Assembly: GCA_964614265.1 (NCBI GenBank)
Contig: CAZTKT010000001.1
Coordinates: 1 to 54,707 of the forward strand
Reading direction: 5' to 3'
Source: an uncultured Candidatus Saccharibacteria bacterium
Lineage (GTDB): Bacteria; Patescibacteriota; Minisyncoccia; Phycocordibacterales; UBA918
DNA: 54,707 bases
How positions within the stretch are numbered: position 1 is the first letter of the stretch; each line of letters begins with the position of its first letter. The translations under genes were made by a program, and so were the position numbers. The notes below the pieces were generated by a model. It was not told the origin of the DNA and searched no databases. It saw nothing but the letters and a program-made list of their open reading frames with translations. Of this stretch, positions 1,202 through 38,361 are shown in pieces.

Positions 1202-1256
1202 TCACCGATGTATCTCATCACATCTTCAGCGTGTCCAGGAGGAATAGTCTCTTGAC

Positions 1257-3152: not shown

Positions 3153-3195
3153 ATCGTTGTTGTGATTATACTGTTAAGTACATACGGTCTTGTGA

Positions 3196-3801: not shown

Positions 3802-3810
3802 AGCCGACGT

Positions 3811-3839
3811 ATTATAAATCGCTTTTTATTTGGCGTCAA
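3811..3839 (-). promoter_or_regulatory. Sigma70-like promoter of grpE (TTGACG-17-TATAAT)
   Basis: On the minus strand, ttgacg (3839-3834), a 17-nt spacer and tataat (3816-3811). Only 9 nt separate the -10 box from the grpE ATG at 3801. Confidence 0.5.
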
Positions 3840-3947
3840 CAGGCGATTGACAAATAGACATAAAATGTCATGATGGCCATAGATGATCCAGGATCTCACC
3901 AGGGGATCCTTTATTTGTAGAGGTCTTCGTAGAAAAAGGAGTTGTGT

Positions 3948-4361: not shown

Positions 4362-4518
4362 AGAGGGACGCGGGGTAGTAGGTACAACAATCAATACTAC
4401 CCAGTGTCTCAACAACGAAAGTTCCATATATTATGGAGCTTTTTTATTTTGTTATGTGTGGTATCGCTGGAGACAGGGTGTTGTCTACGAGTCTCGGTGA
4501 GGAATGCCTGTACGGTCA

Positions 4519-5259: not shown

Positions 5260-5261
5260 AC

Positions 5262-5705
5262 TTATTGTGATGTTACACTGATAACAACAGTACCCTGCTG
5301 ATCACCCATGCGCACCCCCACAGAATGTTCACCGATCGTTTTAATGGGTTGTGCGAGATCGAGTGCTGACGCGAGGATCGGCATATCCGCGCGAGCAGAG
5401 AGCGCTATCGCGATATCTGTCGCTCGCAACCCCTTAAAGAGATTGCCCTGCGTATTTGCGGGGGCACTGATCGAGAGTGGTGTGGTGGCCATCATGGAAA
5501 GAAACTGTCTAAATGCCTCCGCCCGAGTGGTATCTGCAACTACCGAGCGTGCTTTTTGTTCCTCGTATTGTTTCAGATTATGTGCTGTTGCGACAAGCGC
5601 GAGTCGACGTGGAATGAGATAATTTTGTGCATGTCCATCTGGTACTATCTTGACCTCATGTTTTCGACCCATCCGTGCGATATCTTGCAAGAGAATGACT
5701 TTCAT
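5262..5705 (-). CDS. rplI: Ribosomal protein L9
   Basis: MKVILLQDIARMGRKHEVKIVPDGHAQNYLIPRRLA. I chose the internal ATG at 5705 because the upstream gene's stop is at 5716. Confidence 0.9.
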   Translation of the reverse strand: MKVILLQDIARMGRKHEVKIVPDGHAQNYLIPRRLALVATAHNLKQYEEQKARSVVADTTRAEAFRQFLSMMATTPLSISAPANTQGNLFKGLRATDIAIALSARADMPILASALDLAQPIKTIGEHSVGVRMGDQQGTVVISVTSQ

Positions 5706-5715
5706 ATCAGTAGTA

Positions 5716-6978: not shown

Positions 6979-7064
6979 TTCTGCATTATGCCATACTTTA
7001 CCTAAAATATACAAAAGGTATGATGGGTACATTGTGGACGTGTTATACTTTCTACCTATACCGT

Positions 7065-8561
7065 ATGAGTATCTTCTTAGCAAATAAGCGAGACGACACT
7101 CCCCACGGCGTGTCACTCCCAACAAAAAAAACCACAGCGCTCAGTCAGAGCACGTTGTCTCTCCACAACACACTCACTGATACTCTGGAAGCATTTCTGC
7201 CACGCGATCCCACAAAGGTTACACTCTATACCTGTGGTCCAACGGTGTATGACAGTGTACACATCGGCAATCTGCGCGCGTACGTCTCTGCGGACATACT
7301 GAAACGTACGCTTGTCTATAACGGTTTCAGTGTCAATCACACAATGAATTTGACAGACTTCGGTCACCTCACTGATGACGCAGATGCTGGTGAGGATAAA
7401 ATGATGCGTGCACTCAAGCGTGCGGGTAAAAAGGTTACCCTTAAGAATATGCGTATCGTTGCGGATGGATTTAGCGATCTCTTCATACGCGATATGGCAG
7501 ATATCCACAACCAGACACCGACACAATACACAAAAGCCAGTGACTATGTAAAAGAACAGATCGTGCTTATTCGCACGCTGGTAGAAAAGGGGTATACCTA
7601 CCAGACCAGTGACGGAATCTATTTCGATGTTTCTCGATTTCCTGCCTATGGAGCGCTTGGTCATATCAATCTTGCAACACTGAAAGAAGGAGCGCGTATG
7701 AAAGTGAACACGGAAAAACGAAACCCCGCTGATTTTGCATTATGGAAATTTGGGGAGCTTGGGTGGGAGAGCATGTGGGGTAAGGGCTTTCCTGGGTGGC
7801 ATATCGAATGTACCGCAATGGCATTTGCGACTCTGGGAAAACAGATAGACATCCACACTGGCGGTATTGATCTCATCCCTACCCACCACAATAGCGAAAT
7901 TGCCCAAGCAGAATCAGCGACAGGAAAAAGTCCATACGTACGCTATTGGATACATAATGCATTCATCACGATCGACGAAACAAAGATTTCAAAATCACTG
8001 GGCAATGGTATCACCCTTCGTCAACTACGTGATCGTGGATACTCCCCACTCGCGTACCGCTATTGGCTTCTCACCGGACAGTATCGCTCTCCGATGAATT
8101 TTACATTTGAGGCACTTGACGGTGCGAAGCATGCGCTGTTTCGACTGAAGCGATTTGTCGTTGAGGCAATGGCGCGCGGCGGTGGGGTGATCATCGAACC
8201 GTATCGTCAGGCGATTCATCACGCACTCAACGATGATCTTGATACGCCGCGCGCCATTGCCCTCATCTGGGAATTGATCAAAGATGATGCTCATGCCGTC
8301 CCTGATAAAGTCGCAACGATTGTACACGTCGATACGGTCTTAGGTCTTGGTCTTGCTGATACGTCCGACAGTACTGGACACCCACTCGGTGTCATTGATA
8401 TTAGTGATCTCCCTGCAAAGGTCCAAGACCTCCTCGCAGAACGCGAACATGTACGAAAACAAAAAGACTGGGATCAGGCCGATGCCATCCGGCAAGCCAT
8501 TAACCTCGAAGGGTATCTCGTCGAAGACACTCCCCACGGCGTCCGGGTAACGAAGGCGTGA
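7065..8561 (+). CDS. cysS: Cysteinyl-tRNA synthetase
   Basis: HIGNLRAY (the HIGH motif) and KISKSLGN (the KMSKS motif). The start is uncertain: ATG 7065, or in-frame TTG 7155 which gives the canonical (M)SLHNTLT N-terminus. Confidence 0.93.
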   Translation: MSIFLANKRDDTPHGVSLPTKKTTALSQSTLSLHNTLTDTLEAFLPRDPTKVTLYTCGPTVYDSVHIGNLRAYVSADILKRTLVYNGFSVNHTMNLTDFGHLTDDADAGEDKMMRALKRAGKKVTLKNMRIVADGFSDLFIRDMADIHNQTPTQYTKASDYVKEQIVLIRTLVEKGYTYQTSDGIYFDVSRFPAYGALGHINLATLKEGARMKVNTEKRNPADFALWKFGELGWESMWGKGFPGWHIECTAMAFATLGKQIDIHTGGIDLIPTHHNSEIAQAESATGKSPYVRYWIHNAFITIDETKISKSLGNGITLRQLRDRGYSPLAYRYWLLTGQYRSPMNFTFEALDGAKHALFRLKRFVVEAMARGGGVIIEPYRQAIHHALNDDLDTPRAIALIWELIKDDAHAVPDKVATIVHVDTVLGLGLADTSDSTGHPLGVIDISDLPAKVQDLLAEREHVRKQKDWDQADAIRQAINLEGYLVEDTPHGVRVTKA

Positions 8562-8638
8562 GTGATAGGACGCTGTGGATATACTGTGGACAAAATGTGT
8601 ATGGGCGCTGAGATTGCGTTGTGGCATGACATGATACA

Positions 8639-10084
8639 ATGTTCTCTACCATGCCAGAATCCACTCCACAAAAATCACCATACGTCCCACAATCCACGCG
8701 TCCACCGATGCAAAAGAACTTGCGGGTGGTCCCCCACAACACCGATGCGGAACGAGCGCTCCTCGGCGCGATCATGCTCAAACCCGAGAGCATGCACGAC
8801 ATCTCTGTCTCCGTCTACCCAGAATCTTTTTATGCAGACAAGCACCGCGAAATCTTTACCGCGATGCTTGATATCTTTACCAAGAGCAACCCAATCGATT
8901 TGCTCTCTGTCACCCACAAACTGAAAGATCGCAAGGTGCTGGATCGTATCGGTGGTGCAAGTTATCTCACCGAACTGATCGAGAGTGTACCCGCCGCCGC
9001 AAACGCAAGTTACTACGCGGAAGTCGTACAAGACAAAGCAGTGCTTCGCGGACTTATCAGAGCCGCCGACGAAATCGCAGAGATTGGATTTTCAAATCCG
9101 GAAGAAGTGGACGAAGCGCTCGACAGTGCTGAGAAAAAAATCTATCAGGTCACCCAGTCACCGACGGCACAGAAGTTTACCCCAATCAAAAATTCTCTCG
9201 GCGAGGCGTGGGATCGGCTCGACCGACTCCATAATTCGAAGGACGAAATACGTGGTGTGCAGACTGGCTTTCCGGCACTGGATAGTTTACTCGCGGGTCT
9301 GCAAAAATCCGATCTCATCATTCTTGCCGCACGACCAAGTGTGGGTAAGACCGCATTTGCGCTCGATATCGCGCGCCACGCGGCCTGCCTTCACGGTGTA
9401 CCCGTTGGCATCTTCTCCCTTGAAATGAGCGATCAACAGCTCGTCGATCGCATGCTCGCCGCTGAAGCAAAGGTTGATGCGTGGAAACTCCGTACGGGGA
9501 AACTCTCAACCGATGAAGAATTTGCGCTCGTGCAAGAAGCAATGGGACGACTCTCTGAAGCGCCAATTCACATTGATGACCAGCCCGGCAATAGTATCCT
9601 CAAGATGCGTTCAGCGGCACGTCGTCTCAAAAACGAATTTGGTCTTGGACTGATCGTTGTTGATTATCTTCAGCTCATGATGCCCGCAAATATGCGCTAC
9701 CACGACTCGATGGTGCAACAAGTGACTGAGATCTCTCGTGCACTTAAAATAATGGCGCGCGAGCTTGATGTGCCCGTTCTTGCCCTCTCACAGCTCTCGC
9801 GTGCGGTCGAACAACGTGGTGGCAAACCCCGCCTCTCCGACCTTCGAGATTCCGGCTCGATCGAGCAAGATGCCGATGTTGTTATGTTTATTCACCGTGA
9901 TGATAAGACAAATGAAAACTCTGATCGACCAAACATCGCACAGATTCTCGTTGAGAAACATCGCAATGGTCCCACCGGCTCGATCGAGCTGTATTTTGAT
10001 GAGAAGCGTACAACCTTCCTCTCGCTTGAAAGCAAACGTGGTGGAGAAGATGCATTTGCCGCGACACACGATGATGATTTTTAA
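8639..10084 (+). CDS. dnaB: Replicative DNA helicase DnaB
   Basis: PHNTDAERALLGAIML N-terminal domain, Walker A (ARPSVGKT) and the RecA-like C-terminal domain. Confidence 0.96.
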   Translation: MFSTMPESTPQKSPYVPQSTRPPMQKNLRVVPHNTDAERALLGAIMLKPESMHDISVSVYPESFYADKHREIFTAMLDIFTKSNPIDLLSVTHKLKDRKVLDRIGGASYLTELIESVPAAANASYYAEVVQDKAVLRGLIRAADEIAEIGFSNPEEVDEALDSAEKKIYQVTQSPTAQKFTPIKNSLGEAWDRLDRLHNSKDEIRGVQTGFPALDSLLAGLQKSDLIILAARPSVGKTAFALDIARHAACLHGVPVGIFSLEMSDQQLVDRMLAAEAKVDAWKLRTGKLSTDEEFALVQEAMGRLSEAPIHIDDQPGNSILKMRSAARRLKNEFGLGLIVVDYLQLMMPANMRYHDSMVQQVTEISRALKIMARELDVPVLALSQLSRAVEQRGGKPRLSDLRDSGSIEQDADVVMFIHRDDKTNENSDRPNIAQILVEKHRNGPTGSIELYFDEKRTTFLSLESKRGGEDAFAATHDDDF

Positions 10085-10099
10085 TACCACACGGCGACT

Positions 10100-10714
10100 A
10101 TGACTTCCATTGAAGAGCTTTCCCGACAGTTTGAGCGTTTCCCGGGCATCGGCCCACGCCAAGCGCGACGGTTTGTCTACCATCTCTTGACTGAAGATCC
10201 ACAGGCGCTTCAGCTACTTGCCATGGCAATTGCTGACATACAAACAAAAGTTATTGAGTGCCCGCACTGTTTTCGCTATTTCGCGAGCTCCAATCGGGCA
10301 ACGCTCTGTGGCATCTGCGAAAACGGCGCTCGCAATCATGAGCTTCTCATCGTTGTCGAACGCGACTCCGACATCATGCCGATCGAATACTCGGGTACGT
10401 ACGACGGCTACTACTTCGTACTCGGCGGTACCGTTCCGCTTCTCGATCCTGAAGAAAACATAAAACTGCGCGGCGGCGCATTGCGTGGCATAACAGAGAT
10501 GCGCGCAGACGGCGGCCTCAAAGAAGTCATTCTTGCCTTCTCCGTCAATCCCGACGGAGAAAATACTGCCCGCTATGTCACGACCCTTCTCAAAGACCCT
10601 GGAGAAAAGCACGGCATAAAAATTTCTATCCTCGGACGCGGTCTTTCAACCGGCTCCGAACTTGAATACGCCGATCCTGAAACTATCAAGAATGCCCTGA
10701 AGAATCGCACCTAG
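10100..10714 (+). CDS. recR: Recombination protein RecR
   Basis: FPGIGPRQARRFVYHLL helix-hairpin-helix, a CPHC...CGIC zinc finger and a Toprim region. Confidence 0.95.
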   Translation: MTSIEELSRQFERFPGIGPRQARRFVYHLLTEDPQALQLLAMAIADIQTKVIECPHCFRYFASSNRATLCGICENGARNHELLIVVERDSDIMPIEYSGTYDGYYFVLGGTVPLLDPEENIKLRGGALRGITEMRADGGLKEVILAFSVNPDGENTARYVTTLLKDPGEKHGIKISILGRGLSTGSELEYADPETIKNALKNRT

Positions 10715-26273: not shown

Positions 26274-27638
26274 CTATTCCTTTGGCGTATCAATAACCTC
26301 AATGATCTTTATTTTCTTCGCATCCTTCGGGAACGACTGTTTCCAGAATGGACGTATGACGGTCGTTGCGCGCTCTATTGCGGGCTGATATTTCAAGAGG
26401 ATGCCCGTGAGGTCTGACTTTGAAGCGCCGACGATGAGTTGACGGAGTTTTTCTTGGTCATAGGTCCACACTATTTTTGCAGTACCAGCCAGGCTGAAAT
26501 CTATTTTATTCCAACTCATCGGTTCACTGTGGACACTCGAAGAAGCATAGGAGAACGCCAATGATTGCGGATCTTCAATACGAACATCCTCATTTTGATA
26601 GCCAACAACGGTATTTTGTGCGACATACCGTGCAAAATCTGCATCCGCAAACATCGGTGCTTCAAGAACGGCATGTTCTTTCAATGTGGCTTGTTTGTCC
26701 CCAGTACTTTCTGACGGGAGCGAGCTGAATCTTATCCGAGCGCCAGCACTATAGACGATGAAGCCTGCTGGTTGTTCGCTTTTGAGTCGTGCAAGAAGTT
26801 TGTCTTTCAGTTCTAATTTTATTGTCTCTGTGGAGCTTGCGAGTACTGATGCTTCTACAATCAATCTGGTTCCCTTAAAACCACCCTGCATCGATGCCTT
26901 TGATTCAGCATACATAGTATCAAACTGCGGACTTCCCTTTAGTCCAGGGATAGTGAAACGGGTTGGTGCGATATTGTATGAGTCTCCTGTCCCATCAGCA
27001 GATACCCTTGTGGTGAGTGTACCGGGTACTTTTTCTTTGGAAGCGTTTGTAGTGTATCCCGGAATAACTACTGAATCAGCAATACGAAACACGTGTCCAT
27101 CTTTTGCCTCAAAGCGGGTACTTTTAATTAATCGTTGCGGTTCGCTACTAAAAGTATTATATATCGTGATTTCGCCCTTTGCTAGTTCTTCCACTTCTTC
27201 AGATCCTGTTGCATCGACGGTTCGTTCTCCCGTCTCCTCAAGTGTCAATAGCTCATAGCCGAGCGTACCGGTATTTGGCTGTTGATATGCAGAAAGTGTC
27301 GCCTGTACGGTCACTGCCTTTGACTTTGGATACACAGTGATCTCTGCTCCTTGGAGAAACAATGTCGCGAGAAATCCAATACCGAAGAATAAAACGATTG
27401 CAATAACGATAAGATGCATCCTCTTGCCTCGAGGCAGTTTGCGTTTCGTGGTTTTCTCTGCCATTTGGTATTCGTCATGATCTGCCATATCTTCTTCTGA
27501 AAGACTTACTGCTGTATGCACGGGTGCAGAGTAGGCACTGGGCGGAACGACATCCTGCATAGGCGATTTTGTGCGTGGGCGCGCACTTCGCTCTGCCGCC
27601 GGACGAATATCTCCTAAATTCCATTTCTGTTGTGCCAT
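26274..27638 (-). CDS. Bitopic membrane protein with a large extracytoplasmic beta-rich domain, hypothetical
   Basis: Cytoplasmic N-terminus, one TM helix (HLIVIAIVLFFGIGFLATLFL), then about 360 aa outside the membrane. No family recognised with confidence. Confidence 0.6.
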   Translation of the reverse strand: MAQQKWNLGDIRPAAERSARPRTKSPMQDVVPPSAYSAPVHTAVSLSEEDMADHDEYQMAEKTTKRKLPRGKRMHLIVIAIVLFFGIGFLATLFLQGAEITVYPKSKAVTVQATLSAYQQPNTGTLGYELLTLEETGERTVDATGSEEVEELAKGEITIYNTFSSEPQRLIKSTRFEAKDGHVFRIADSVVIPGYTTNASKEKVPGTLTTRVSADGTGDSYNIAPTRFTIPGLKGSPQFDTMYAESKASMQGGFKGTRLIVEASVLASSTETIKLELKDKLLARLKSEQPAGFIVYSAGARIRFSSLPSESTGDKQATLKEHAVLEAPMFADADFARYVAQNTVVGYQNEDVRIEDPQSLAFSYASSSVHSEPMSWNKIDFSLAGTAKIVWTYDQEKLRQLIVGASKSDLTGILLKYQPAIERATTVIRPFWKQSFPKDAKKIKIIEVIDTPKE

Positions 27639-27656
27639 GATACCAAAAGTATACAA

Positions 27657-28874
27657 TTATTTTGAATAAGTATCTATCTCGTCACATGTGTGTAACTTGT
27701 GGAAAAAACGTGCGGCTAATGCAAGGCGAGGATCGATAGGTACCTCAGCAGGGAGTGTCACTAACTCACGCATTGCCTCTGGCGAGAGCGGAATAATTGT
27801 TTGCGTCTCACGTCCAGTCGCCTGTTTTGTGGCAGATGCAACACTGTCAACAAAAAATTCTTTTGTTGGTTGGTCAAGGATAACAAAAATAGTTTGTGGG
27901 AGCACATATCGTACGGTAAGTGTGCGCATGACCTGTTCAAGTTGGTCTGCGTATGTTTTTTGTGCTTGTGCAAGTAGTGGCGCATGCGACTTTGGTACCG
28001 AACCTTGTGCGTAGGCACGGAGATACCCTCGAGCTTCCTCGGGGATGGTGTGAGAGAGGGTGGCGATATCTCGAATGATTGCATGGGCCCCCACTTCAAG
28101 GGTCGCTGTCTCGTACAGTATTGTATCTTGTATAAGTGTAACCTCAGTTGCTTCTCCAGAAATATCAACTATCATTGCGTGTGTAACGAGTGGGTAGAGA
28201 TCTCGTAGGACACAATAGAGAATGAGCGCCGATGTGTGTACACGTAGTGCAATGGATTGGTGCATGTGTCGTTCGATATCCTCAAGTGCGGTCAAAATAG
28301 AGATCGGTACTAGGCCACGGAGATGTGCAATAGTAATTTCCGACACCTCCTTATGGTATGGATTTTGTACGTGATATCCATTGAGGGTAATGTCTACGAT
28401 GAGTTTTTCAACGAGTTGTTGCCCAGTATCGGCAGCAATCTTTTTGTCGTCAGTGCCATGCGCTTTTTCGGTCTCATATGCACGTGCGATGATGTCCTCG
28501 ATGAGTTTTGGGGTGGTCGTAAACGGAGTTTTTTGTTCAAAATGGATGATTTGTGTGGTGGTGTATGACCACGGCGCACCGCAAGAGACAAGTATGTTCT
28601 CGATCCGTAGCCGCTTGTCTTTTTTGTATAACGCTCGCATCCCGTTTTGTTCAAGCTCAAGCATTGTGGAAAAGAGTGCGTGTCGCATTGCTCGCACATG
28701 ATCTTCCGGCGTATATTTTGCCCGGATCGACATGAACTCTCGGTGTATGTACAGCACATCGGGAAGCGTCTTCTTTTTTTCAGAGAGGACGATACTGACT
28801 GCAACACTTCCCGAACCAATATCAACAATGGCGCCACAGCGAGTATTTTGTATGCGTTTACTAAACAACCCCAT
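27657..28874 (-). CDS. Actin-fold (ASKHA) ATPase, FtsA/PilM/Ppx-like
   Basis: Phosphate-1-like AIVDIGSGSVAVSIV and phosphate-2-like AMIVDISGEATEVTL. 405 aa. Confidence 0.6.
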   Translation of the reverse strand: MGLFSKRIQNTRCGAIVDIGSGSVAVSIVLSEKKKTLPDVLYIHREFMSIRAKYTPEDHVRAMRHALFSTMLELEQNGMRALYKKDKRLRIENILVSCGAPWSYTTTQIIHFEQKTPFTTTPKLIEDIIARAYETEKAHGTDDKKIAADTGQQLVEKLIVDITLNGYHVQNPYHKEVSEITIAHLRGLVPISILTALEDIERHMHQSIALRVHTSALILYCVLRDLYPLVTHAMIVDISGEATEVTLIQDTILYETATLEVGAHAIIRDIATLSHTIPEEARGYLRAYAQGSVPKSHAPLLAQAQKTYADQLEQVMRTLTVRYVLPQTIFVILDQPTKEFFVDSVASATKQATGRETQTIIPLSPEAMRELVTLPAEVPIDPRLALAARFFHKLHTCDEIDTYSK

Positions 28875-28974: not shown

Positions 28975-30846
28975 TTATTGTAATACTGCCTTCACCCGTC
29001 TGATACCAGCGGCAGACGATTCTTCGGAGATAATTTTAAAAACACCAGTAAGCGTTGCGGTGTTTTCTACGTGTGGGCCTCCGCAGAGCTCACGTGAATA
29101 GACCGTCCCATCCACACCACGCACGGTGTACACTTTTACTTCGTCTGGGTATCGTTCCCAGAAACTTCCTTCGATGGCGGGATCATGTTGCGCGGCATCT
29201 TTTGAGAGAGTTTCGATGGTGACTGATGCGCCTGCCCTAATAGCATTGGTGACGTACTGCCCGACGCGGTCGAGTGTCTCGCGGTCTACTTTCTTGGGAT
29301 AGGTGAAATCAAAACGGAGACGCTCTCCGGTGATATTGGAGCCAGCCTGATGCACCTCATCTCCGAGTTCTTTTCGTAATCCTGCAAGCAAGAGGTGTGT
29401 GGCGGTATGATACTGCACGACTTTTTCCGAGTGATCGGCAAGCCCGCCCTTGAACTTGTGTTCCGCACCGGCACGGGAGGTTTCTTGATGTTTTTTCATG
29501 GCCTCTTTGAAACCAAGATTATCTACGAGGATATTTCGTTCATCTGCAATTTCTTGCGTCAGCTCTATTGGAAAGCCGTGTGTTGTGAAAAGAAAAAACG
29601 CTTCCTCACCTGAAAGAGATCCCTTTTTGGCCATCTTCTCAAACCGCCTCATTCCATGTTTTAAAGTAATGCGAAATCCTTTTTCCTCCTCCTCAATTTC
29701 CCATTCGATACTACCTACTTGCTTCGCAAGGCTTGGATAGTGTGTTTGGTATATGGTGATCACACTCTTCGCCAGATTCTTTAATTCGCCTTCAGGTATA
29801 CCAAGTATGTCTGCATATCTGATACTTCGACGAAGTAACCTTCTTACAAAATAACCCCGGTCTACATTTAAAGGAACGACTCCATCTCCGATGAGAAACG
29901 TTGCCGCACGAATATGATCAGCGATCACACGAAACGCAACGAGGTTATCCGTGTACTTTTTTCCTGACAGTGTTTCAAGTTGGGAAATGATGGGGGCAAG
30001 GAGATCAATCTTAAAAATATCAGGATCATCCTGTGCCGCCGCAGTCATGCGCTCCAGTCCCCCACCGAAGTCCACATTTTTTTGCGGCAATTTGGAAAAG
30101 GTGCCATCGGTATTTTTTACATACTCCATGAAGACATTGTTGCCGATCTCCATAAAGCGCCCGCAGTCGCAGTTTGGGTGGCAGTGTTCGCCATACTTGG
30201 TATCATGTTCGGTACCAAAATCATAAAACATCTCCGAGTCAGGTCCGCCCGGCTCGCCTGCCGGCATCTTTTCCGGCACGCCGGCACGGCTCCACCAGTT
30301 TTTCTTCGCTTCGTAATAGAAAATTCGTTCGCCATCCTTGATGCCGCGTGCGCCACCCTCCGCCTCCGAGCCGATGTGTGCGACTTCGTGCGAGACACCG
30401 ACTTCTCCGAGGAGTCTCTGCCAGATGGCAACCGACTCATCATCTTTCGGAAGATTATTCTTTTCGTCACCCGCAAAGACGGTGAAATAAAGTCTCTGTG
30501 GATCCAAGTCAACTTTCTTTGTCAAAAATTCAAACATCCACGAAAGCTGTTCTTCTTTGAAATAATCGCCAAACGACCAATTCCCCAGCATCTCAAAAAA
30601 GGTCGTATGCCGGTTGTCCCCCACTTCTTCGATGTCGTCGCTACGGAATGCTTTTTGCGAGTCTACGATACGTGTCCCCTTTGGGTGCGTCTCCCCCATC
30701 AGATACGGGAGCATGGGTTGCATCCCACTACCGGTAAAGAGTGTGGTCGGATCATTCTCTGGCACGAGCGCAGAGGATGGCACAATGGCGTGCGCTTTTG
30801 CCTTGAAAAACTCTAGGTATTTTTGACGTATGAGATTGCCGGACAT
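28975..30846 (-). CDS. alaS: Alanyl-tRNA synthetase, short form (catalytic, tRNA-binding and editing domains; no C-Ala domain)
   Basis: FTGSGMQP...RHTTFFEMLGNWSFGDYFK, an editing domain (HTATHLL...CGGPHVENT), and an end at 623 aa. Confidence 0.95.
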   Translation of the reverse strand: MSGNLIRQKYLEFFKAKAHAIVPSSALVPENDPTTLFTGSGMQPMLPYLMGETHPKGTRIVDSQKAFRSDDIEEVGDNRHTTFFEMLGNWSFGDYFKEEQLSWMFEFLTKKVDLDPQRLYFTVFAGDEKNNLPKDDESVAIWQRLLGEVGVSHEVAHIGSEAEGGARGIKDGERIFYYEAKKNWWSRAGVPEKMPAGEPGGPDSEMFYDFGTEHDTKYGEHCHPNCDCGRFMEIGNNVFMEYVKNTDGTFSKLPQKNVDFGGGLERMTAAAQDDPDIFKIDLLAPIISQLETLSGKKYTDNLVAFRVIADHIRAATFLIGDGVVPLNVDRGYFVRRLLRRSIRYADILGIPEGELKNLAKSVITIYQTHYPSLAKQVGSIEWEIEEEEKGFRITLKHGMRRFEKMAKKGSLSGEEAFFLFTTHGFPIELTQEIADERNILVDNLGFKEAMKKHQETSRAGAEHKFKGGLADHSEKVVQYHTATHLLLAGLRKELGDEVHQAGSNITGERLRFDFTYPKKVDRETLDRVGQYVTNAIRAGASVTIETLSKDAAQHDPAIEGSFWERYPDEVKVYTVRGVDGTVYSRELCGGPHVENTATLTGVFKIISEESSAAGIRRVKAVLQ

Positions 30847-30860: not shown

Positions 30861-33800
30861 TTACTGATTCTGCAAGAAAGTCTCAATAACTGCAAGCATA
30901 CGTGTATATCCCTCTGGTTTGAGGCTCTCAATAAAATTACCGTGATACGGATTCTTCAGGTTCATTCCTGGGTCAAGAATCTTGTATTTTTTCTTGAATT
31001 GTTCGAGCGGTGTCTGCGTTCCATTCTCGTATGCCATGTCCCAAAATGATTGGAACGCTTCTCGCATATTACCATTATGATACAAAATCCAATTCTCGAC
31101 ACCGATACCACCAAATCCTCCGTGTTCTACTCGCTTGTACGCATTGCCTGCATTTAGCAGTTCTTTCGTTAAGACGATAGTAGCGACGGTTTGCTGATAC
31201 AATTCCTCTCCGCAATTTTTCCGTACCCAGTCTAGTTTTTCGGATACAGCACTGTGAGAGCCGAATTCTGCTGGGTCTGATTTCTTTGCAAAACCGATGT
31301 CAATATCAATGGCATTTTCAAGTGCAAGACCGCCGATCTGACTCACTCCCATCGCGCGTAATTGATAATAACCACTTGCTTCAGAATGCGATTTGTCTTC
31401 GGTAAAGATAAATTTCTCTTTTACCTGTGTAGCAATTTCTTGGGCACGTGAAAAATCGTGTTGATCGAGCTGAAGGATGAGATCGAAATCATAACTGCCG
31501 GCAGTATTTGTATTTCTTCCTGTGGATCCGATATCGAGAAGCTGTGCACCAATAATACTTGCGTCATATTCTTCTTTAAGTTCGATATTGAGTTCACCCA
31601 AGGCGTTCATGACTGTAGTACGGATATGCGTCGATACTTCAGATAATTTCTCATGGTCTTGCGCCTTTGTTTCCCATACCCGTTGCATCTGCGCTTTGAG
31701 GGGATTATCTTCAGGAATCTGGTTGACCGTAAGCGCGTCTCCATCGAATCGATTGAGTCCATTGAACGTCTTTCGGTACTCGTTATACATCTGCGGAGTA
31801 AAGATAACCGTTCCGTTCGTGTCGCACACAGGGATGTACCAACCATTTTGTGCAATTTCATAATAGGCTTTTTCCAGAGATTTTGGTTCTTGCATCAAGG
31901 ACTCTCTGGCGACCATGAAGTCGATCTCAGTTGAAGGAAATCCTGTTCTGATACCGTAATGTTTTCCTCCTCCTGTAGGAAATAATTCCATATGATCACG
32001 ATCATATGATGTATCTCCACCTAGCTCTGTGTGCTGGAACTGTCCTCTATCACGCACTACGAAGATCAGGTTCCCAAAACCTGTTGCCATTGAACTTTGC
32101 ATTGCTCCGAGAAAGCCACTTCCCATGTCTTCGTTATTCACTCTGCTCACATCTGTATCAAGAGGGGTCGAATCACTTTGTGCAGAGGAGCCAAGAAATT
32201 CCTTTGCGACCGAACCATTTTGTAAAATGCCTGGAAGGTATTGTAACGGCGTCCCCTTGAGTAGGTCGCCGGCATGTAGTATAAGACCCTCCGAATGGCT
32301 GCGGTAAAGCTCAAGATTCCGCTCATGCGCCGCTGTTTTTGTCTCACGCATCTGCACGAGCACTCCATCCAAGCTCTCAATACCAAGAGGTCGTAAAAAC
32401 ATCTCTGCAATCCGGGCATTCAATGATGCGCCTTCGGCGACTCCCAAGCTCTCTCGGAGGTATTGATAGTGCTCCGCAAGTGTCATCTCGTCGCGCACCA
32501 GTTCCGTGTTTTTTCCCAGTGTCGAGTTAAAGAAAAGTGTGTGGAATTTTTCTAAGGTATAGGCAAACTTTTTCTGTTCTTCCGCTGATAATGTCTCTAT
32601 ACCATCGCTGTCCACGCGCTGCAAAAGCTTCTCTCCGCTCTGAAGCGTTTCGATATATTGACGCAATGAACGGTTTGCCGAGTCCGTGTGTATGCGCAAA
32701 AGATCATTGTAAATAATAGAGGAGCGTCGACGAGCTCCTGCTGCAGTTAAAGTGGGGCTTCCTGGGAACCCTCTTTTTAAGCTTGTCTCAATGTCTGTGG
32801 CAGAATGCAAAATGTCAAACACTTTGTAGATCTTTCCGACTGCAGGGAGATTATTCTTTATAAATACATCCTCAATTTTTTTATAGACCACTACTGGATT
32901 GTCTACAGTCAAGAGTTGTTGCATGAACGAATCTTTCACTCGTTGAATTTCTTGCGAAGGAGATGCATCAATCTGAAGACATATCTCAATATAATCTACA
33001 CGTTTTTCTTTTGGAATAGCCCCTAACTCTTTAGTATGTTTCCATAAATGATTTCGGAGATATGGTTGATCCCTGGTTTGCTCAAAAACATCAAGTAAAT
33101 CATACTGAACAACATCTAATATTTTCGGAATGGCGTCTGTAAAAAAATGCGTTCCCATGTAGCCTGGAGAAGAGAAGCCATACTCGCAAAGTTTTTCTGC
33201 AGTCTCAAAAAAAGATGTCTCATTGTCGATAATCGTCCTGTCACGAGACGCACTAATGAGATCAGGGATGTCGTCAAATTGTAGAATGTACTTCACGGCA
33301 GTCTGTAGGCGCGTGTAAAATTGTACAGTATGTTCATCGAATAATTCTTTCTGCATGTGCTCGTCCTCGCATACCTGTTTAAAATACTGCATGCTATAGC
33401 TGAGTTGGCCATGAACGTTATTATCCGTCAAATTACACTGAAACTTTTGTTCTAATTGGTCTAGCACCTCTAAAGAATGTGGAATTTCCAAAATCTCTGT
33501 ATAAAAAGGGGCTTGCCTAATATTGAAACTCCCGAACTTTTTTATTATTTCTGCTGCCCTGCCAGAGGCCATCCCCTCACGCCAATAGGGGTTATGGAAA
33601 AGTCCAAGAATCTGTCCGCCGGCTGGAGCACGGATTTCGTCGTTTTGGGTGTAGAAATCATATCGGAGGAAATCCGGAAGCTCTACTTGATACCCGAGTG
33701 TGTTTTTCATCTGTAATACAAATTCCTTAAACTCTGGCCGGAACACTTCAGAAAGAATCTCTTGCGATTTTTCATTTTTAAGAATGTCGAGTAGCCCACC

Positions 33801-35231
33801 AATTTCTGGTCTGATATCAAGTTCACGACAGAGTTCTAGGAATGGAATTGCAGCCGGGTATTCACGCAACATTTTGTATGTCTCAATGTTTTGCAAATGC
33901 GGAGTGTTTCCTTGTAGGATTGAGACACTTTCTAGAAAATGTGCGAGATCAGGATCATTACGCATCTCCTGCACTATTGGGACTTCTAGTAGCGTGTGAA
34001 TTTTTTCAGCTGTAGTCTGATTTCTCTCCTCGGTAGTGTGTCTTCTCCCGTACGAGGCTTCATATAAAAGTTCATCCAGAAGCCACGGAGTTGTACGAAC
34101 AATTCTTGCACACTCTCCAGCAAGCTCTGCGTCATCGAGCATCAATACATCATTCCAATGCTCACGTGGGGAGACAGAGCGGTTGTGGTGTTTTTGTCGC
34201 AATCTTATCGCGGTGAGTAGCGTAAACAGATCATCATCTGAGACCATTTTTATTGTTGTGTCCCAATGATCACCAAGTGATATGTGAAAACCAAGTTGTT
34301 GTAGTTGAGCGATTTTTTCTAAATTTGTGTCACTTATTTCTTCCTGTTTGACAGAGTCGAAAGCATAGTCCTTTATCATGTCAGCGACATACGGTTCTGA
34401 AAGTATTAATTCGTACTGGTGGTTATTATATCCAAAATAACGAGAACCGACATGTATGCCAGCCTGTTCTAATTTTTCCAATACCCTATTGATTTCTGGA
34501 GACTCGACGAAATCGTGAAGCGCTTCAAACTGATACTTCATCATATGCCCATCAATATGAAATCCCAGCCTTTTCAATCTCTCAATCATCACCACCGGGT
34601 CATTTGCCTTGCCCAAAAGCTCAGCTAGTTTCTTCTCTTCTTTTGGTGACACACGATATGGCACTTCTCTCTCTATTGAAAATTCTACCTGTCCCTCTCG
34701 ATACGAATCATGTATGTCATGAATCGTATATCCTTCCCGTCTATATTTTTCTACTTCCCTATTTGCTCTCCCTGATTTGACATACTTGTGGTGCGATTCG
34801 GTATTGATCAACTGCTGTTCCAAATAACGAGTAAACGCAATAAGATCATCTGGATTTTCTATGCCGGCACGTCGTAACTGGGCGCGTTTTCTGCGTTCCT
34901 TCAGTTTTGCAATTAAGCCTGATGTGCTACGGCTCCGTTCTAATTCTGCTCGCGCGTCAGCGAGTGTCGGAAGTGGCACGGATTCAACCGTAGGTAGTGT
35001 CTCTGGCACTTCTGCAGGAAGCCTTTCCCTACGTTTCCCTTCTATATATTGTTCAGCCCGATCTAAAAGCTGTGCAGTATTCTCATGATACTCGCGTTCC
35101 CGTCTTTGCTCGAGAGTCTCGACAGGAATGGTCGGAGCTTCAGTCGCTGAAGGTAGGGTCTCACCCGCTTCTGGTTGAGGCGGTGGGACCCTCTCGGTAT
35201 TTTGAGTATGATGATGAAAACGTTCTGGCAT
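30861..35231 (-). CDS. Orphan 1456-aa protein with a C-terminal Pol-beta-type nucleotidyltransferase module
   Basis: LLDIGSTGRNTNTAGSYDFDLIL (G-S...D-x-D), AIDIDIGF and VEHGGFGGIGVENWILYH all lie in the last ~260 aa. I see no signal peptide or TM helix, and the upstream ~1150 aa are unrecognised. Confidence 0.75.
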   Translation of the reverse strand: MPERFHHHTQNTERVPPPQPEAGETLPSATEAPTIPVETLEQRREREYHENTAQLLDRAEQYIEGKRRERLPAEVPETLPTVESVPLPTLADARAELERSRSTSGLIAKLKERRKRAQLRRAGIENPDDLIAFTRYLEQQLINTESHHKYVKSGRANREVEKYRREGYTIHDIHDSYREGQVEFSIEREVPYRVSPKEEKKLAELLGKANDPVVMIERLKRLGFHIDGHMMKYQFEALHDFVESPEINRVLEKLEQAGIHVGSRYFGYNNHQYELILSEPYVADMIKDYAFDSVKQEEISDTNLEKIAQLQQLGFHISLGDHWDTTIKMVSDDDLFTLLTAIRLRQKHHNRSVSPREHWNDVLMLDDAELAGECARIVRTTPWLLDELLYEASYGRRHTTEERNQTTAEKIHTLLEVPIVQEMRNDPDLAHFLESVSILQGNTPHLQNIETYKMLREYPAAIPFLELCRELDIRPEIGGLLDILKNEKSQEILSEVFRPEFKEFVLQMKNTLGYQVELPDFLRYDFYTQNDEIRAPAGGQILGLFHNPYWREGMASGRAAEIIKKFGSFNIRQAPFYTEILEIPHSLEVLDQLEQKFQCNLTDNNVHGQLSYSMQYFKQVCEDEHMQKELFDEHTVQFYTRLQTAVKYILQFDDIPDLISASRDRTIIDNETSFFETAEKLCEYGFSSPGYMGTHFFTDAIPKILDVVQYDLLDVFEQTRDQPYLRNHLWKHTKELGAIPKEKRVDYIEICLQIDASPSQEIQRVKDSFMQQLLTVDNPVVVYKKIEDVFIKNNLPAVGKIYKVFDILHSATDIETSLKRGFPGSPTLTAAGARRRSSIIYNDLLRIHTDSANRSLRQYIETLQSGEKLLQRVDSDGIETLSAEEQKKFAYTLEKFHTLFFNSTLGKNTELVRDEMTLAEHYQYLRESLGVAEGASLNARIAEMFLRPLGIESLDGVLVQMRETKTAAHERNLELYRSHSEGLILHAGDLLKGTPLQYLPGILQNGSVAKEFLGSSAQSDSTPLDTDVSRVNNEDMGSGFLGAMQSSMATGFGNLIFVVRDRGQFQHTELGGDTSYDRDHMELFPTGGGKHYGIRTGFPSTEIDFMVARESLMQEPKSLEKAYYEIAQNGWYIPVCDTNGTVIFTPQMYNEYRKTFNGLNRFDGDALTVNQIPEDNPLKAQMQRVWETKAQDHEKLSEVSTHIRTTVMNALGELNIELKEEYDASIIGAQLLDIGSTGRNTNTAGSYDFDLILQLDQHDFSRAQEIATQVKEKFIFTEDKSHSEASGYYQLRAMGVSQIGGLALENAIDIDIGFAKKSDPAEFGSHSAVSEKLDWVRKNCGEELYQQTVATIVLTKELLNAGNAYKRVEHGGFGGIGVENWILYHNGNMREAFQSFWDMAYENGTQTPLEQFKKKYKILDPGMNLKNPYHGNFIESLKPEGYTRMLAVIETFLQNQ

Positions 35232-35248: not shown

Positions 35249-36505
35249 CTACACCGGTCCCGCGCCAGAGATAACAATCTTATCGGGATCAAGGTATTGG
35301 CGTAGGGCACTGTTGACGTCTTTTTTCGTCAGTCCTGCAATGGCATCATACTGCGCGACAAGTGCGGTTGCAGTCATGCCGGCACAGCGTGCGTCATGAT
35401 AGAGCGCAAGGGTCTTTGCATCTGACTCGTGCGCAAGGGTGAATTGGTTTTTGAGTAGTTCTTTGAAACGAACGAGCTCGGTCTCAGTGATACCTTTTTC
35501 GATAATTTTTTTGATCTCTGCGGTGGTGGAGGTGATACCATGCGTGAGATCTTTGGGGGTGAAAAACGTAAAGATGTACCACATACCAGAGCGATCTGTG
35601 GTGATCCCCTCTGTGCGTGCGTAGATGGTATATGTCAGTCCTTGTTTCTCGCGAACGGTGCTCATGAGTCGACCGCTAAAGCCTCCCCATTTTCCCAGTA
35701 CGCTTAATCCAAATTGGAATGGGAGCAGGGTTTGGTCAGAGAGGGTGAGCGGAAAGGTGTTGCCGATAAAGAGCTCGACATTTGTCTTGCCGGGGACTGA
35801 TTGATACTGTGTGATCGCATCATGTGCGGGAACGATGAGCTGGTATGGTGACGAATCAGCAGATGTTTCTGTGAGTGCGAAGAGTGCAAGGATTGCTTCT
35901 TGCGCTTTCTGTGTCCCCGATATACTTACAATGCGGGGACGACGAAGGAGACGTGTATGTAAATCGACGTAGGTTTTTCGGGTGATCGATTTAAGCGCGG
36001 TGCGACGTGTGGCAACAGATGGTCGATAGTATGGATGTGCTTTTGTATAGAGGAGTTGGGTGAAGGTATTGTATGCACGAGTGCGGGCGTTGTCTGCCTC
36101 ATCATGCAGTGCCTGACGATACTGTATGTGAACCTGGGTAATCTCTTTTGGATTGAATGCTGGTGCACGAAGCATCTCGCTCATAAGACGAAGGAATGGG
36201 GTGAGGTGTTCTGATAGTGTACAACCACTTATCGTGATACCGAATGAATCACTACTGATCGAGAGCTCTGCGCCTATTTTTTCAAGTGCATCAGCGAATG
36301 CGTCCCGTGTTTTTGTCTTGGTGCCTCGTTGAAGGAGCTCGGCGTAGAGTGGCGCGAGCATGCGATCGGCAACTGTATCTAGCGGTATGGTTATCTTAAC
36401 GCGTGTCACTGCATCTGTTTGCGGAATGATGCGGGTGACCTCGAGGCATCCAACGGTACTGGTGGTAGGTGTTCGCATAGTGCTAGTGGGAAATAAAATT
36501 ACCAA
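35249..36505 (-). CDS. M16-family peptidase-like protein lacking the HxxEH motif (non-catalytic partner type)
   Basis: 418 aa with M16 N/C-domain-like sequence and no zinc motif. It is adjacent to the HxxEH-bearing paralog. Confidence 0.75.
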   Translation of the reverse strand: MVILFPTSTMRTPTTSTVGCLEVTRIIPQTDAVTRVKITIPLDTVADRMLAPLYAELLQRGTKTKTRDAFADALEKIGAELSISSDSFGITISGCTLSEHLTPFLRLMSEMLRAPAFNPKEITQVHIQYRQALHDEADNARTRAYNTFTQLLYTKAHPYYRPSVATRRTALKSITRKTYVDLHTRLLRRPRIVSISGTQKAQEAILALFALTETSADSSPYQLIVPAHDAITQYQSVPGKTNVELFIGNTFPLTLSDQTLLPFQFGLSVLGKWGGFSGRLMSTVREKQGLTYTIYARTEGITTDRSGMWYIFTFFTPKDLTHGITSTTAEIKKIIEKGITETELVRFKELLKNQFTLAHESDAKTLALYHDARCAGMTATALVAQYDAIAGLTKKDVNSALRQYLDPDKIVISGAGPV

Positions 36506-37775
36506 TGGTGCGACGTTCTCTGGTGAAGTATGTACGCGCGACGTTTTGAATATCCTGCGGTGTCACTCGAGCGATGTCCTCTGAAAAGGTATAGTAGCGA
36601 GTCCAATCACCGAGCGCGATACATTCGGTGAGATTGCTTGTGATAGAGGAGGAGCCATCGCGTCCAAAGATTTCTTCTGCACGAATGGTGGTTTTGAGTG
36701 TCTCAAGACGTTTTGGGGAGATTGTTTTTTTCATGAGTGTCATTAATTCGGTATTGATGATGTGCTCGACTTCTGTATGAGACGCGGTCGCGGTGATCTG
36801 TGCGTAGATGGTGAAAAGCTCGTCATCAAACGTGGGGGTAATGGAACAATCGACAGATGATGCTTGATGAGTATCAACGAGTACTTTTTCAAATCGACTT
36901 TGGGGGCCATCGGAGAGATATGCCGCAATGACATGCAGAACTGCCCACTCAAAGGTGCGACCACCGGGCACTTTATAACTGGTCGCGTGGAGATTGATCG
37001 GATTAGTGCGTACTACTTCGACTTGACGTTCTCCTTCTTGTGTGGGTTCAATGATGTGTTCGTCGGGGATGTGGTGTGGAGAGCGTGAGATAGCACCAAA
37101 TGCCTCACTTGTTGCATGGAGCGCATCGTCTCTCGTGATGTCGCCGACAATGGTGAGTACCGCATTATTGGGCCAGTAGTAGGTGTCATAGAATTGTTTC
37201 AGACTTTGTGTCGTCATTGCTTCAAGATCCGGTTTATGACCGATGGTGTCGTGACTATAGCCGTGAGAGACGTATGCCGCCTGGGTAAGAGCAGTCATCA
37301 GCGCATCGAGGGGAATACCCGCGTGCATCTCGTATTCGCTTAAGACATTAGCGCGTTCGGGAAGAAACTCGCTGTCTTCGATCAGTAGGTTGCGCATGCG
37401 TCCGGCTTCTACCGTGAGTGCTTGGGGGAGGTAGGCACGCGGAACGGTAAAGAAGTAGTTAGTCCGATCGAGCCACGTGGTCGCGTTCATGGTCGCGCCA
37501 GCGTCCTCAAGTATTTTATGACCAGGAATTTTTATTTTTTTACCGAAGCCGTCATGGGTTGGCTTAAAAAGCATATGCTCGAGCATGTGGGCGAGGCCAG
37601 TTCTCCCACGCTCTTCATGACGACTGCCAACGAGATACACGATGTTGCTCGTGACGGTACCGCTTCCGGGGATGTACATATGGAGCACACGGAGACCATT
37701 TTTCTGTAACTGAAATTCACTCACAGCTTGCACTGTCTTGATGTATGAGAAACCAGGAATGGTATCGTTACGCAT
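36483..37775 (-). CDS. M16-family zinc metallopeptidase (insulinase-like)
   Basis: GLAHMLEHMLFK contains HxxEH. The start is uncertain between 37775 and 37850 because the ORF's 5-prime end overlaps the HD gene. Confidence 0.85.
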   Translation of the reverse strand: MRNDTIPGFSYIKTVQAVSEFQLQKNGLRVLHMYIPGSGTVTSNIVYLVGSRHEERGRTGLAHMLEHMLFKPTHDGFGKKIKIPGHKILEDAGATMNATTWLDRTNYFFTVPRAYLPQALTVEAGRMRNLLIEDSEFLPERANVLSEYEMHAGIPLDALMTALTQAAYVSHGYSHDTIGHKPDLEAMTTQSLKQFYDTYYWPNNAVLTIVGDITRDDALHATSEAFGAISRSPHHIPDEHIIEPTQEGERQVEVVRTNPINLHATSYKVPGGRTFEWAVLHVIAAYLSDGPQSRFEKVLVDTHQASSVDCSITPTFDDELFTIYAQITATASHTEVEHIINTELMTLMKKTISPKRLETLKTTIRAEEIFGRDGSSSITSNLTECIALGDWTRYYTFSEDIARVTPQDIQNVARTYFTRERRTIGNFISH

Positions 37776-38361
37776 GTTCTTCTTCGGCATAGATAAAATT
37801 TTTATATTCATCAAAGACATGATTGAATTCGTGCATAATATCGTTTTCAAGACGACTATTTAAAATATTACTGATACTCTGATATACCATGACGCGCTCG
37901 CTTTCGGTACCGCCAAAATCTTTTTTGAATCGTTCACGATCGGTATAGTATTCCTCAATCATTGATCGCATGTTGTGGATCTTGTCCGCCGCCGCCACAA
38001 TGAGAGCTTTCTGCGACGCGTTTTTTAATTGTGTAACATAGTGCGTGCGCTTTTCTCTCCAGGCGTTGTGTGCATCTACTTCCTCTCGGGAGGATGGCTC
38101 AGTCACTTCTTGCACAATAGTGCAAACCCCATACCCAAAATCTTCTTCTAGTTCTTCTTGTGTGTAATCGGTATCTTCAAGTGTGTCGTGGAGAAGCCCC
38201 GCAATGATGGTGTCCTCGTCGTCTGTATAATCGGCGATGATGCAGGCGACCGAGAATGGGTGCGAGATATAGGGAAACGGAATGCGTCCCCTTCGCGTTT
38301 GACCGTCATGGAGCACGCTTGCCGCCCTGATTGCCTGCTCGATGCGGTAGGAATACATCAT
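37768..38361 (-). CDS. Stand-alone HD-domain (RelA/SpoT-type) hydrolase, small alarmone hydrolase-like
   Basis: AASVLHDGQTRRG...YISHPFSVA...GLLHDTLEDT. Confidence 0.8.
   Translation of the reverse strand: MMYSYRIEQAIRAASVLHDGQTRRGRIPFPYISHPFSVACIIADYTDDEDTIIAGLLHDTLEDTDYTQEELEEDFGYGVCTIVQEVTEPSSREEVDAHNAWREKRTHYVTQLKNASQKALIVAAADKIHNMRSMIEEYYTDRERFKKDFGGTESERVMVYQSISNILNSRLENDIMHEFNHVFDEYKNFIYAEEEHA

Follow-up and report, generated by a model that had tools for sequence, protein, structure and literature searches.

A large unnamed bacterial protein family with a CCA/PAP-type nucleotidyltransferase domain behind a second conserved domain

The 1456-amino-acid (aa) protein considered here is encoded in a stretch of 54,707 nucleotides (nt) of contig CAZTKT010000001.1 (assembly GCA_964614265.1), from an uncultured Candidatus Saccharibacteria bacterium. 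This stretch, taken at its full length, is called the window below. The protein belongs, as a typical member, to a large and so far unnamed family of bacterial proteins, which is new, as is its domain architecture, inside the known Pol-beta nucleotidyltransferase (NTase) superfamily. The part held in common by the family is a C-terminal module of about 700 aa. It ends in an NTase domain that, judging from its conserved residues, is very probably active, and ahead of this domain lies an equally conserved alpha/beta domain whose invariant residues suggest a second active site. A preliminary description of the window, made from its letters, had presented the protein as an orphan. That premise is replaced by a widespread dark family with clear residues to test. 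No name or Pfam model was found for any member, and no description of the architecture was found in the literature, which does not disprove that one exists.

The C-terminal nucleotidyltransferase

30864..31592, minus strand: Pol-beta NTase core and helical neck, aa ~1214-1456 (from model, Foldseek and conservation).
31482..31529, minus strand: catalytic motif G1235-S1236...D1248-x-D1250, 100% conserved in 168 relatives.
31299..31301, minus strand: codon of D1311, the third catalytic carboxylate, in AIDIDIGF, 99% conserved.

A Pol-beta NTase had been proposed for the end of the protein, and for the last ~240-260 aa the fold, the positions of the motifs and their conservation all bear this out. 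The G-S/D-x-D stretch is LLDIGSTGRNTNTAGSYDFDLIL at aa 1231-1253 (nt 31473-31541), the third acidic strand is AIDIDIGF at aa 1307-1314, and the helix that had been likened to one in CCA-adding enzymes is VEHGGFGGIGVENWILYH at aa 1368-1385. All three were present as first described. In the AlphaFold2 model strand 1229-1233 is followed by G1235-S1236 and then a short helix, D1248-F-D1250 opens strand 1248-1255, and D1311 is within strand 1302-1316. These are the canonical strand and loop positions of an NTase core, and the model that places the residues there is of high confidence. The protein thereby has the features by which the Pol-beta superfamily is recognized, namely hG[GS], [DE]h[DE]h and, from a later strand in the sheet, a third carboxylate.

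Residue conservation was computed over 168 relatives that are 27-67% identical. Conservation is 100% at G1235, S1236, R1239, D1248, D1250, K1356, Y1365, K1366 and E1379, and 99% at D1311. Because the full catalytic set is kept (G-S, D-x-D, the third Asp, and the Lys and Tyr-Lys of the neck), the domain is very probably an active, Mg2+-dependent nucleoside monophosphate (NMP) transferase.

When the model of aa 960-1456 was compared with the PDB by Foldseek, NTases were matched by its C-terminal half only, many of them with a probability of 1.00. The best matches were to the archaeal class I CCA-adding enzyme AfCCA (A. fulgidus, 1uet/1r89, E ~3e-7), poly(A) polymerase (PAP; 1f5a, 2e-6) and Cid1 (5e-6). 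These were followed by Trf4 (2e-5), GLD2 (5e-5), NF90/NF45, CdnC (2e-4) and cGAS (7e-4). The likeness to class I CCA-adding enzymes, PAP, OAS and cGAS that had been noticed in the sequence therefore holds, since the best structural neighbors are the enzymes that were named. Profile searches reach the domain less directly. No Pfam NTase model matched the window protein itself. Under a permissive scan, 13 of 46 relatives matched NTP_transf_2 (PF01909; best E 4e-4, under the curated cut-off) and 4 of the 46 matched SMODS (best E 0.012). The oligonucleotide-cyclase models of PADLOC match aa 1204-1274 weakly (E 1e-3 to 6e-3), over 50-70 residues around G-S/D-x-D.

The alpha/beta domain

31707..32297, minus strand: aa ~979-1175, an alpha/beta domain that may hold a second active site (from conservation and a model with predicted local distance difference test values, pLDDT, mostly >90).

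The block that had looked conserved on first inspection is indeed so, and it contains the majority of the invariant positions that are not in the NTase. Its segments are LILHAGDLLKG... at aa 983-1014, GFGNLIFVVRD at aa 1051-1061 and HMELFPTGGGKHYGIRTGF at aa 1080-1098, in agreement with the earlier positions. Conservation of 97-100% is seen at D989, K992, E1011, D1020, T1022-P1023, D1025 and D1027, and further at E1082 (98%), H1091, R1095 and P1134. Position 1052 is Tyr in 91% of members and Phe in the window protein. The alpha/beta domain is conserved to the same degree as the NTase, and the pattern of its conserved polar residues suggests that it holds a second active site.

About 40 of the 50 top PDB matches obtained with this half in Foldseek are ADP-ribosyltransferase (ART) folds, among them PARP4, tankyrases, exotoxin A, PARP12, DarT and RCD1. 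These are the sole recurrent structural matches. They are non-significant (E 0.054-2.6), with probabilities of at most 0.44, root mean square deviations of 8-16 Å and target-normalised TM scores of 0.2-0.4. A permissive Pfam scan of 46 members found no ART model. A profile search of PDB sequences and a word-indexed domain-profile search with this half gave nothing, or fragments only. The likeness of the predicted domain to ARTs is a lead, not a result. The lack of a significant PDB neighbor for an alpha/beta domain predicted with this confidence is in itself notable.

Organization of the conserved module

32298..32963, minus strand: all-helical first domain of the module, aa ~757-978 (from AlphaFold2 model and conservation).
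31593..31703, minus strand: single long helix between the two domains that look catalytic, aa ~1177-1213 (model residues 218-254).

The NTase had been described as attached to an unrecognized scaffold of ~1150 aa. This region is not one unit, as aa ~757-1215 belong to the NTase's own conserved module and include the second domain with its invariant Asp, Glu, Lys, His and Arg residues. From N- to C-terminus the module consists of a helical domain, the alpha/beta domain, the single long helix, and the NTase core with its helical neck. AlphaFold2 models based on family alignments have a mean pLDDT of 91.7 and a predicted TM score (pTM) of 0.89 for aa 960-1456, and a mean pLDDT of 88.6 and a pTM of 0.87 for aa 725-1180. 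The module is 59-70% identical to that of the homolog P0002, compared with 40-53% for the N-terminal region, and is thus the more constrained of the two. In the helical domain E761, N793, P796, K800, S825-P826, D843 and N853 are near-invariant.

In gut Firmicutes the helical domain is found on a separate protein. Window aa 725-905 match aa 798-978, the C-terminal end, of a 1015-aa protein in locus L005 (E 4e-22), and the gene for this protein lies directly upstream of that for P0050, a stand-alone member of 550 aa. This match indicates that the module is collinear there and split over two adjacent genes. Module splits also occur in loci outside the gut Firmicutes, and no Pfam model matches the proteins that partner the split versions.

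Two further arrangements were observed. A metagenome-assembled genome (MAG) of Micavibrio has two different module genes, in L051 (CAYRUU010000030) and L063 (CAYRUU010000038), each seemingly split from an upstream open reading frame (ORF) (771+646 aa and 281+757 aa). P0073, a 359-aa protein from the candidate phyla radiation (CPR), consists of just the end of the helical part and the ART-like alpha/beta domain, and lacks the NTase. It is either an NTase-less form that occurs naturally or a copy that has decayed. Its gene, in L091 (7366-9080), follows a gene for a 209-aa protein and directly precedes that for ribosomal protein L9.

Size and distribution of the family

The orphan label does not hold. 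Over its full length the protein has a homolog, P0002, with 56% identity, and the C-terminal ~700 aa are found in 1352 representatives. At least 36 of the sequences collected combine the N-terminal region with the C-terminal module. A search with the full-length protein yields five clusters only; in their alignment aa 1-~700 are common to all, and P0002 alone also shares the C-terminal half. When aa 960-1456 alone are the query, 68 clusters align end to end, always at the C-terminus and behind N-terminal extensions of 0-1025 aa. A profile search of 1.84 billion representatives (50% identity) found 1352 proteins with E<=1e-3, 857 of which have E<=1e-30. The profile match in the window protein covers aa 757-1455. 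Among the best 150 of the 1352 matches the proteins are 673-6114 aa long, and the ~700-aa match is at or near the C-terminus in nearly all.

The module is internal, not C-terminal, in P0147 (6114 aa), P0157 (4932 aa) and a few others. Giant members also occur in L044, L054, L052, L046, L019 and L058. Those of L044 (Patescibacteria) and L054 ("Gammaproteobacteria") have open frames of over 4480 aa, which overrun their 13.4-kb loci on either side.

With each GTDB species represented by a single genome (~186,000 genomes), a scan detected 449 loci with the module. Taxon labels were counted for the best 80 of these, a ranking that is biased toward CPR by the CPR query. The labels are 33 CPR/Patescibacteria (many classes), ~21 gut Bacilli/Clostridia, 11 Gammaproteobacteria, 10 unclassified "bacterium", 2 Micavibrio, 2 Bacteroidota and 1 Pseudobdellovibrionaceae. 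The "Rikenellaceae bacterium UBA9571" contig of L032 is ~89% position-identical to the Candidatus Daviesbacteria contig of L053 and has equal ORF coordinates. This is probably a case of mis-binning or contamination in a public MAG, and the taxon labels of MAGs need caution. Despite such unreliable labels, the range of locus GC among family members, 25% to 63%, indicates that the family truly crosses phyla. Genes in the family loci are mostly 1300-1700 aa long, so that a length of 1456 aa is the norm.

The N-terminal regions

33189..35180, minus strand: lineage-specific N-terminal region, aa ~18-681, recurring in 39 of the sequences collected.
34932..35231, minus strand: acidic, Pro-rich N-terminus, aa 1-100, with 13 Pro, 20 Asp/Glu and two ETLP.
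34272..34583, minus strand: short helix-Gly-strand motif in three copies, LKRLGFHI at aa 219, LEQAGIHV at aa 254 and LQQLGFHI at aa 310.

The lineage-specific part of the protein is limited to aa 1-~725, and the N-terminal region has no match in Pfam or the PDB. Thirty-six of the 39 sequences in which this region recurs carry the C-terminal module, and the remaining three (P0003-P0005) have unrelated C-termini. Throughout the family the N-terminal regions are ~600-900 aa long and unrelated between lineages. Those of Bacilli and Gammaproteobacteria, for example, gave hhalign probabilities <1% against that of the window protein and against one another. Where relatives are very large (1800-4900 aa; 19 proteins), their N-terminal regions contain only isolated Pfam matches, such as Transglut_core in one, and a few members have HEPN_RiboL-PSP-like N-terminal extensions, for which the matches are weak or faint. 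The occurrence of one N-terminal region on other C-termini, together with the unrelated N-termini of different lineages, suggests that both halves of the protein are shuffled modules.

In P0003-P0005, all from CPR, the window-like N-terminal ~650 aa are joined to C-terminal halves of 600-1000 aa without a Pfam match. A 139-aa, Pfam-less gene begins 5 nt after that of P0003 (L002/L003), followed by an ABC transporter pair.

Two of the earlier observations on this region stand in part. The N-terminus is acidic and Pro-rich, but the "ETLP repeats" are two tetrapeptides (aa 24 and 77) that are not conserved. Residues 1-100 are the least conserved part of the protein (40% identity to P0002), and they do not include a signal peptide. 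The three copies of L-x2-[LA]-G-[FI]-H-[IV] are present and far exceed chance, as three or more matches arose in 0 of 200,000 shuffles and one or more in 0.056%. Their His, however, is not conserved in homologs, in which the repeat has the looser form [ND]P-x3-h-x2-L-x3-G-h-x-h.

Gene setting, neighbors and mobility

30861..35231, minus strand: complete ORF, 1456 aa and stop, with an ATG start; the biggest ORF in the window.

The gene is the largest in the window, a single uninterrupted 4.4-kb ORF, and no second copy was found within the window. It lies in a same-strand string of M16 peptidase genes, the 1456-aa gene, alaS and ribosomal protein genes. The spacings had been given correctly: on one and the same strand, alaS follows after 14 nt and the M16 pair precedes at a distance of 17 nt. 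The gene is probably co-transcribed with the M16 peptidase pair and alaS, and no promoter or terminator signals above chance were found in the gaps that flank it. Its product has neither a signal peptide nor a transmembrane helix, as was first noted; the maximum Kyte-Doolittle mean over 19 residues is 1.21, and the N-terminus is not like a signal peptide. Searches of Pfam, NCBIfam, PHROGs and PDB sequences left the protein unrecognized, and no match over its whole length to a characterized family turned up in profile or structure searches.

Next downstream of alaS come two neighboring genes (27657-28874 and 26274-27656, minus strand), for proteins of 405 aa and ~454-460 aa, and after them the infA/rpsM/rpsK/rpsD/rpoA cluster. 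Neither of the two has a Pfam match in the precomputed annotation of the source contig.

The GC content at third codon positions (GC3) of the 1456-aa gene is 0.40, compared with 0.49-0.52 in the flanking alaS (28975-30846) and M16 genes (35249-37850). It is thus about 10 points lower than in the flanks, despite the packing at 14 and 17 nt. The gene context also differs from that of the 56%-identical homolog. The atypical GC3 and the different context are together a hint that the window gene has been mobile.

No neighbor recurs among the 101 immediate neighbors of 55 loci, in which 111 different Pfam families are represented. A link to tRNA or aminoacyl-tRNA synthetase (aaRS) genes was considered because of alaS in the window, a class-II aaRS-like gene in L001, aspS/serS in L010 and the GatB_N of P0016. 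It was rejected, as the four aaRS genes plus TGT and YqeY among the 101 neighbors are at the level expected by chance for CPR genomes.

In gut Firmicutes a constant setting was found. The identical 550-aa protein P0050 occurs on 170 contigs and in 323 blocks of the collection. At all five loci examined (L005-L009) its gene is in a fixed cassette, in the order serine recombinase, Mob_Pre relaxase, Bro-N, 165-aa, 1015-aa, 550-aa and 151-aa genes, and TnpV. The region concerned is ~1-10700, with the gene cassette at 3868-10119, and the 1015-aa protein is Pfam-less. The sequence past TnpV varies, with four or five different right-hand flanks among the five loci. The fixed cassette and varying flanks indicate that P0050 is cargo of a mobilizable transposon. 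With its large serine recombinase, Mob_Pre relaxase and TnpV, the element is Tn4451-like; it carries Bro-N and the 165-, 1015-, 550- and 151-aa proteins as cargo, and its occurrence suggests recent wide spread.

Possible function

Our leading proposal, to which we assign somewhat less than an even chance, is that these proteins are intracellular conflict enzymes, toxin-like or of the abortive-infection type, that tail the 3' ends of RNA. The nearest folds are template-independent polymerases of RNA 3' ends, which makes addition to an RNA 3'-OH the most likely chemistry. The NTase would add NMP to the 3'-OH of RNA. The alpha/beta domain would either bind the substrate or contribute an activity of its own, possibly an ART-like one that depends on NAD+, and the variable N-terminal region would be a lineage-specific targeting or sensing and regulatory part. 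The enzyme would act inside the cell that produces it, in genetic conflict and not in housekeeping. The intracellular conflict role is suggested by the patchy and non-syntenic distribution, the atypical GC3, the shuffled halves, carriage by a mobile element in Firmicutes and the fact that no export signal is present. The HEPN_RiboL-PSP-like extensions of a few members are a further hint of conflict.

Several observations weigh against this proposal. The RNA 3' end as acceptor is read from the ranking of structural neighbors only, and CD-NTase (CBASS-type cyclase), cGAS and OAS folds match too. The body and tail domains that bind tRNA in class I CCA-adding enzymes are missing. The ART-like call comes from Foldseek matches at E 0.05-2 alone, without sequence support. 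No antitoxin- or immunity-like conserved gene occurs among the 101 neighbors of 55 loci. A location in defense islands is not supported, PADLOC matches on the same neighbors being sporadic, with one member per model. A tblastn search of 50,697 phage and 72,556 plasmid records gave no match, and the window gene is within a tight same-strand string of housekeeping genes.

A more elaborate version of the idea is possible but clearly more doubtful. The ~700-aa module may be an undescribed bifunctional enzyme that combines an ART-like or new-fold active site, made up of D-x-T-P-x-D-T-D / K / E / H-x-G-x-R, with a CCA/PAP-type NTase. It would modify RNA ends doubly, as a new class of single-polypeptide conflict system (anti-phage or abortive-infection) or as an effector of CPR and predatory bacteria against their hosts, and each lineage would place it after its own sensor or targeting region.

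It is unlikely, though worth weighing, that the proteins are secreted or injected effectors of CPR, Micavibrio and Bdellovibrio-like bacteria. The NTase, and possibly the ART-like domain, would then modify a host macromolecule, and the N-terminus would deliver or target the protein. Labels of host-dependent or predatory bacteria are frequent in the best 80 loci (33 CPR, Micavibrio, Pseudobdellovibrionaceae), but this ranking is CPR-biased by the query and some MAG labels are unreliable. Lineage-specific N-termini and shuffled halves are typical of effectors, and the lack of an immunity gene is expected where the target is absent from the producer. On the other hand there is no signal peptide or transmembrane helix and no secretion-system gene among the neighbors, and the family is also present in gut Bacilli and Clostridia, there as cargo of the mobilizable transposon.

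We consider it rather improbable that the NTase is a second-messenger synthase of the CD-NTase/cGAS/OAS kind, making cyclic or linear oligonucleotides from free nucleoside triphosphates under the sensing or regulation of the other domains. The PADLOC cyclase matches at aa 1204-1274 (E 1e-3 to 6e-3), the SMODS matches in 4 of 46 relatives and the Foldseek matches to CdnC, CdnD and cGAS (E 2e-4 to 1e-3) point this way. The sequence matches, however, are limited to the generic G-S/D-x-D strand pair, the RNA-tailing enzymes are 2-3 orders of magnitude better in Foldseek, and genes for a CBASS-type effector, a Cap protein or a receptor are not conserved alongside.

There is little to recommend a protein nucleotidylyltransferase, which would AMPylate or NMPylate a partner, a target or its own N-terminus as in MNT-HEPN or DrrA/GlnE. 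Pol-beta NTases of conflict systems are described (PMC5512222) as often modifying proteins, and HEPN_RiboL-PSP-like extensions do occur in a few members. Those matches are weak or "faint", the domain is not of the minimal MNT type but has a PAP/OAS-type helical neck, and no MNT, DrrA, GlnE or KNTase is among the top 50 Foldseek matches.

Least probable of all is a housekeeping RNA-maturation enzyme of reduced genomes, for instance one for alternative 3'-end tailing or repair: the string with M16 peptidases, alaS and ribosomal protein genes, the aaRS genes adjoining in some other loci and the CCA-adding enzyme as closest fold would fit, but the module is in only 449 of ~186,000 species genomes, the 4 aaRS genes among 101 neighbors are at chance, the context differs even from that of the 56%-identical homolog, GC3 is atypical, the tRNA-binding body and tail domains are absent and in Firmicutes the gene is mobile-element cargo.

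Whichever function applies, the family amounts to more than 1300 clusters at 50% identity without a Pfam or NCBIfam model, a name or a solved relative, for which structures can be predicted with confidence. It spans many CPR lineages, predatory bacteria and widespread mobile elements of gut Firmicutes. It offers two candidate active sites, an active-looking NTase of the RNA-tailing type and an equally conserved, catalytic-looking domain. Once its substrate is defined, the Pol-beta NTase superfamily would gain a new enzyme architecture, and the family could reveal a new mechanism of conflict or host interaction in CPR, whose large proteins are mostly uncharacterized. The present gain is a set of domain boundaries and catalytic residues for mutation, which makes the question directly testable.

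Comparison with known systems

The closest known enzymes are the archaeal class I CCA-adding enzymes and, of eukaryotic type, PAP and the terminal uridylyltransferases (PDB 1uet, 1r89, 1f5a, 4fhy for Cid1, 3nyb for Trf4 and 6lbj for GLD2). Shared features are a Pol-beta core followed by a helical neck, the G-S-x-G-R-x-T...D-x-D strand pair, the third Asp and the conserved Lys and Tyr of the neck. As the best Foldseek matches they align with E 3e-7 to 5e-5 over ~290-370 columns at 9-17% identity. For class I CCA-adding enzymes, ~297 columns align, corresponding to head and neck, of proteins that are 430-440 aa long. The family NTase lacks the body and tail domains and any RRM-type RNA-binding domain. 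Only ~240 aa correspond, and in the model the NTase core starts no more than ~240 aa before the end of the protein. The alpha/beta half does not match the body or tail domains of CCA enzymes in Foldseek, and no Pfam match to tRNA_NucTransf2 or PAP_central was found. The position of the NTase also differs, at the C-terminus of a 1456-aa protein and behind a second conserved domain. An identity as a CCA-adding enzyme was rejected because the tRNA-binding body and tail domains are absent.

CD-NTases, cGAS and OAS share the fold class of an NTase joined to a helical domain (Foldseek E 2e-4 to 1e-3), and the PADLOC cyclase and Pfam SMODS matches, which are weak, are in keeping with this. They score below the RNA-tailing enzymes, and the family's genes are far larger and encode extra conserved domains. 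A cyclase of the cyclic oligonucleotide-based antiphage signaling system (CBASS) was rejected, since no effector, Cap2, Cap3, HORMA or TRIP13 partner recurs among the 101 neighbors of 55 loci and the profile matches are weak and partial.

In our own reading of the sequence, as distinct from a search result, the first strand, ending in K992-G993, and the following helix, PLQYLPGILQNG, resemble the H-G-S strand and helix of PARPs, in the H-Y-E clade of ARTs. No H-Y-E or R-S-E triad is evident, and position 992 is Lys. We know of no ART counterpart for the invariant D-x-T-P-x-D-T-D loop.

MenT and AbiEii are NTase toxins, conflict enzymes that nucleotidylate or otherwise block the 3' ends of tRNA. 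CapRel and DSR2 are large single-polypeptide defense enzymes in which a helical sensor region is paired with an enzymatic effector. The family resembles these four in the logic of the working model, and not in sequence or fold. It differs from MenT and AbiEii in that neither is among the top 50 Foldseek matches, that no antitoxin gene is present and that no PADLOC family is matched beyond the weak cyclases. A classical polymorphic toxin or toxin-antitoxin system was rejected as well, as no small gene is conserved upstream or downstream. In addition, no trafficking domain was found, and in this family the N-terminus is the variable end and the C-terminus the conserved one.

Polyvalent proteins (Iyer et al. 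2017, PMC5512222) are large, multidomain proteins of phages and conjugative elements in which enzymes that modify proteins or nucleic acids are joined, ARTs and Pol-beta NTases among them. Their NTase is described there as minimal, NTox45-like and usually fused to ArdC-N, and their ARTs as H-Y-D (Tox-ART-HYD2). The family is similar in being large and multidomain and in having Firmicutes members on a mobilizable element. MuF, ArdC, the zincin-like metallopeptidase and other hub domains were not found by Pfam in the window protein or in the 19 large relatives. An identity as polyvalent proteins was rejected on the basis of different domain families, the lack of hub domains and the lack of phage or plasmid tblastn matches. 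Unlike the NTases of polyvalent proteins, that of the family is CCA/PAP-like with a neck, and most of the members are chromosomal, among housekeeping genes.

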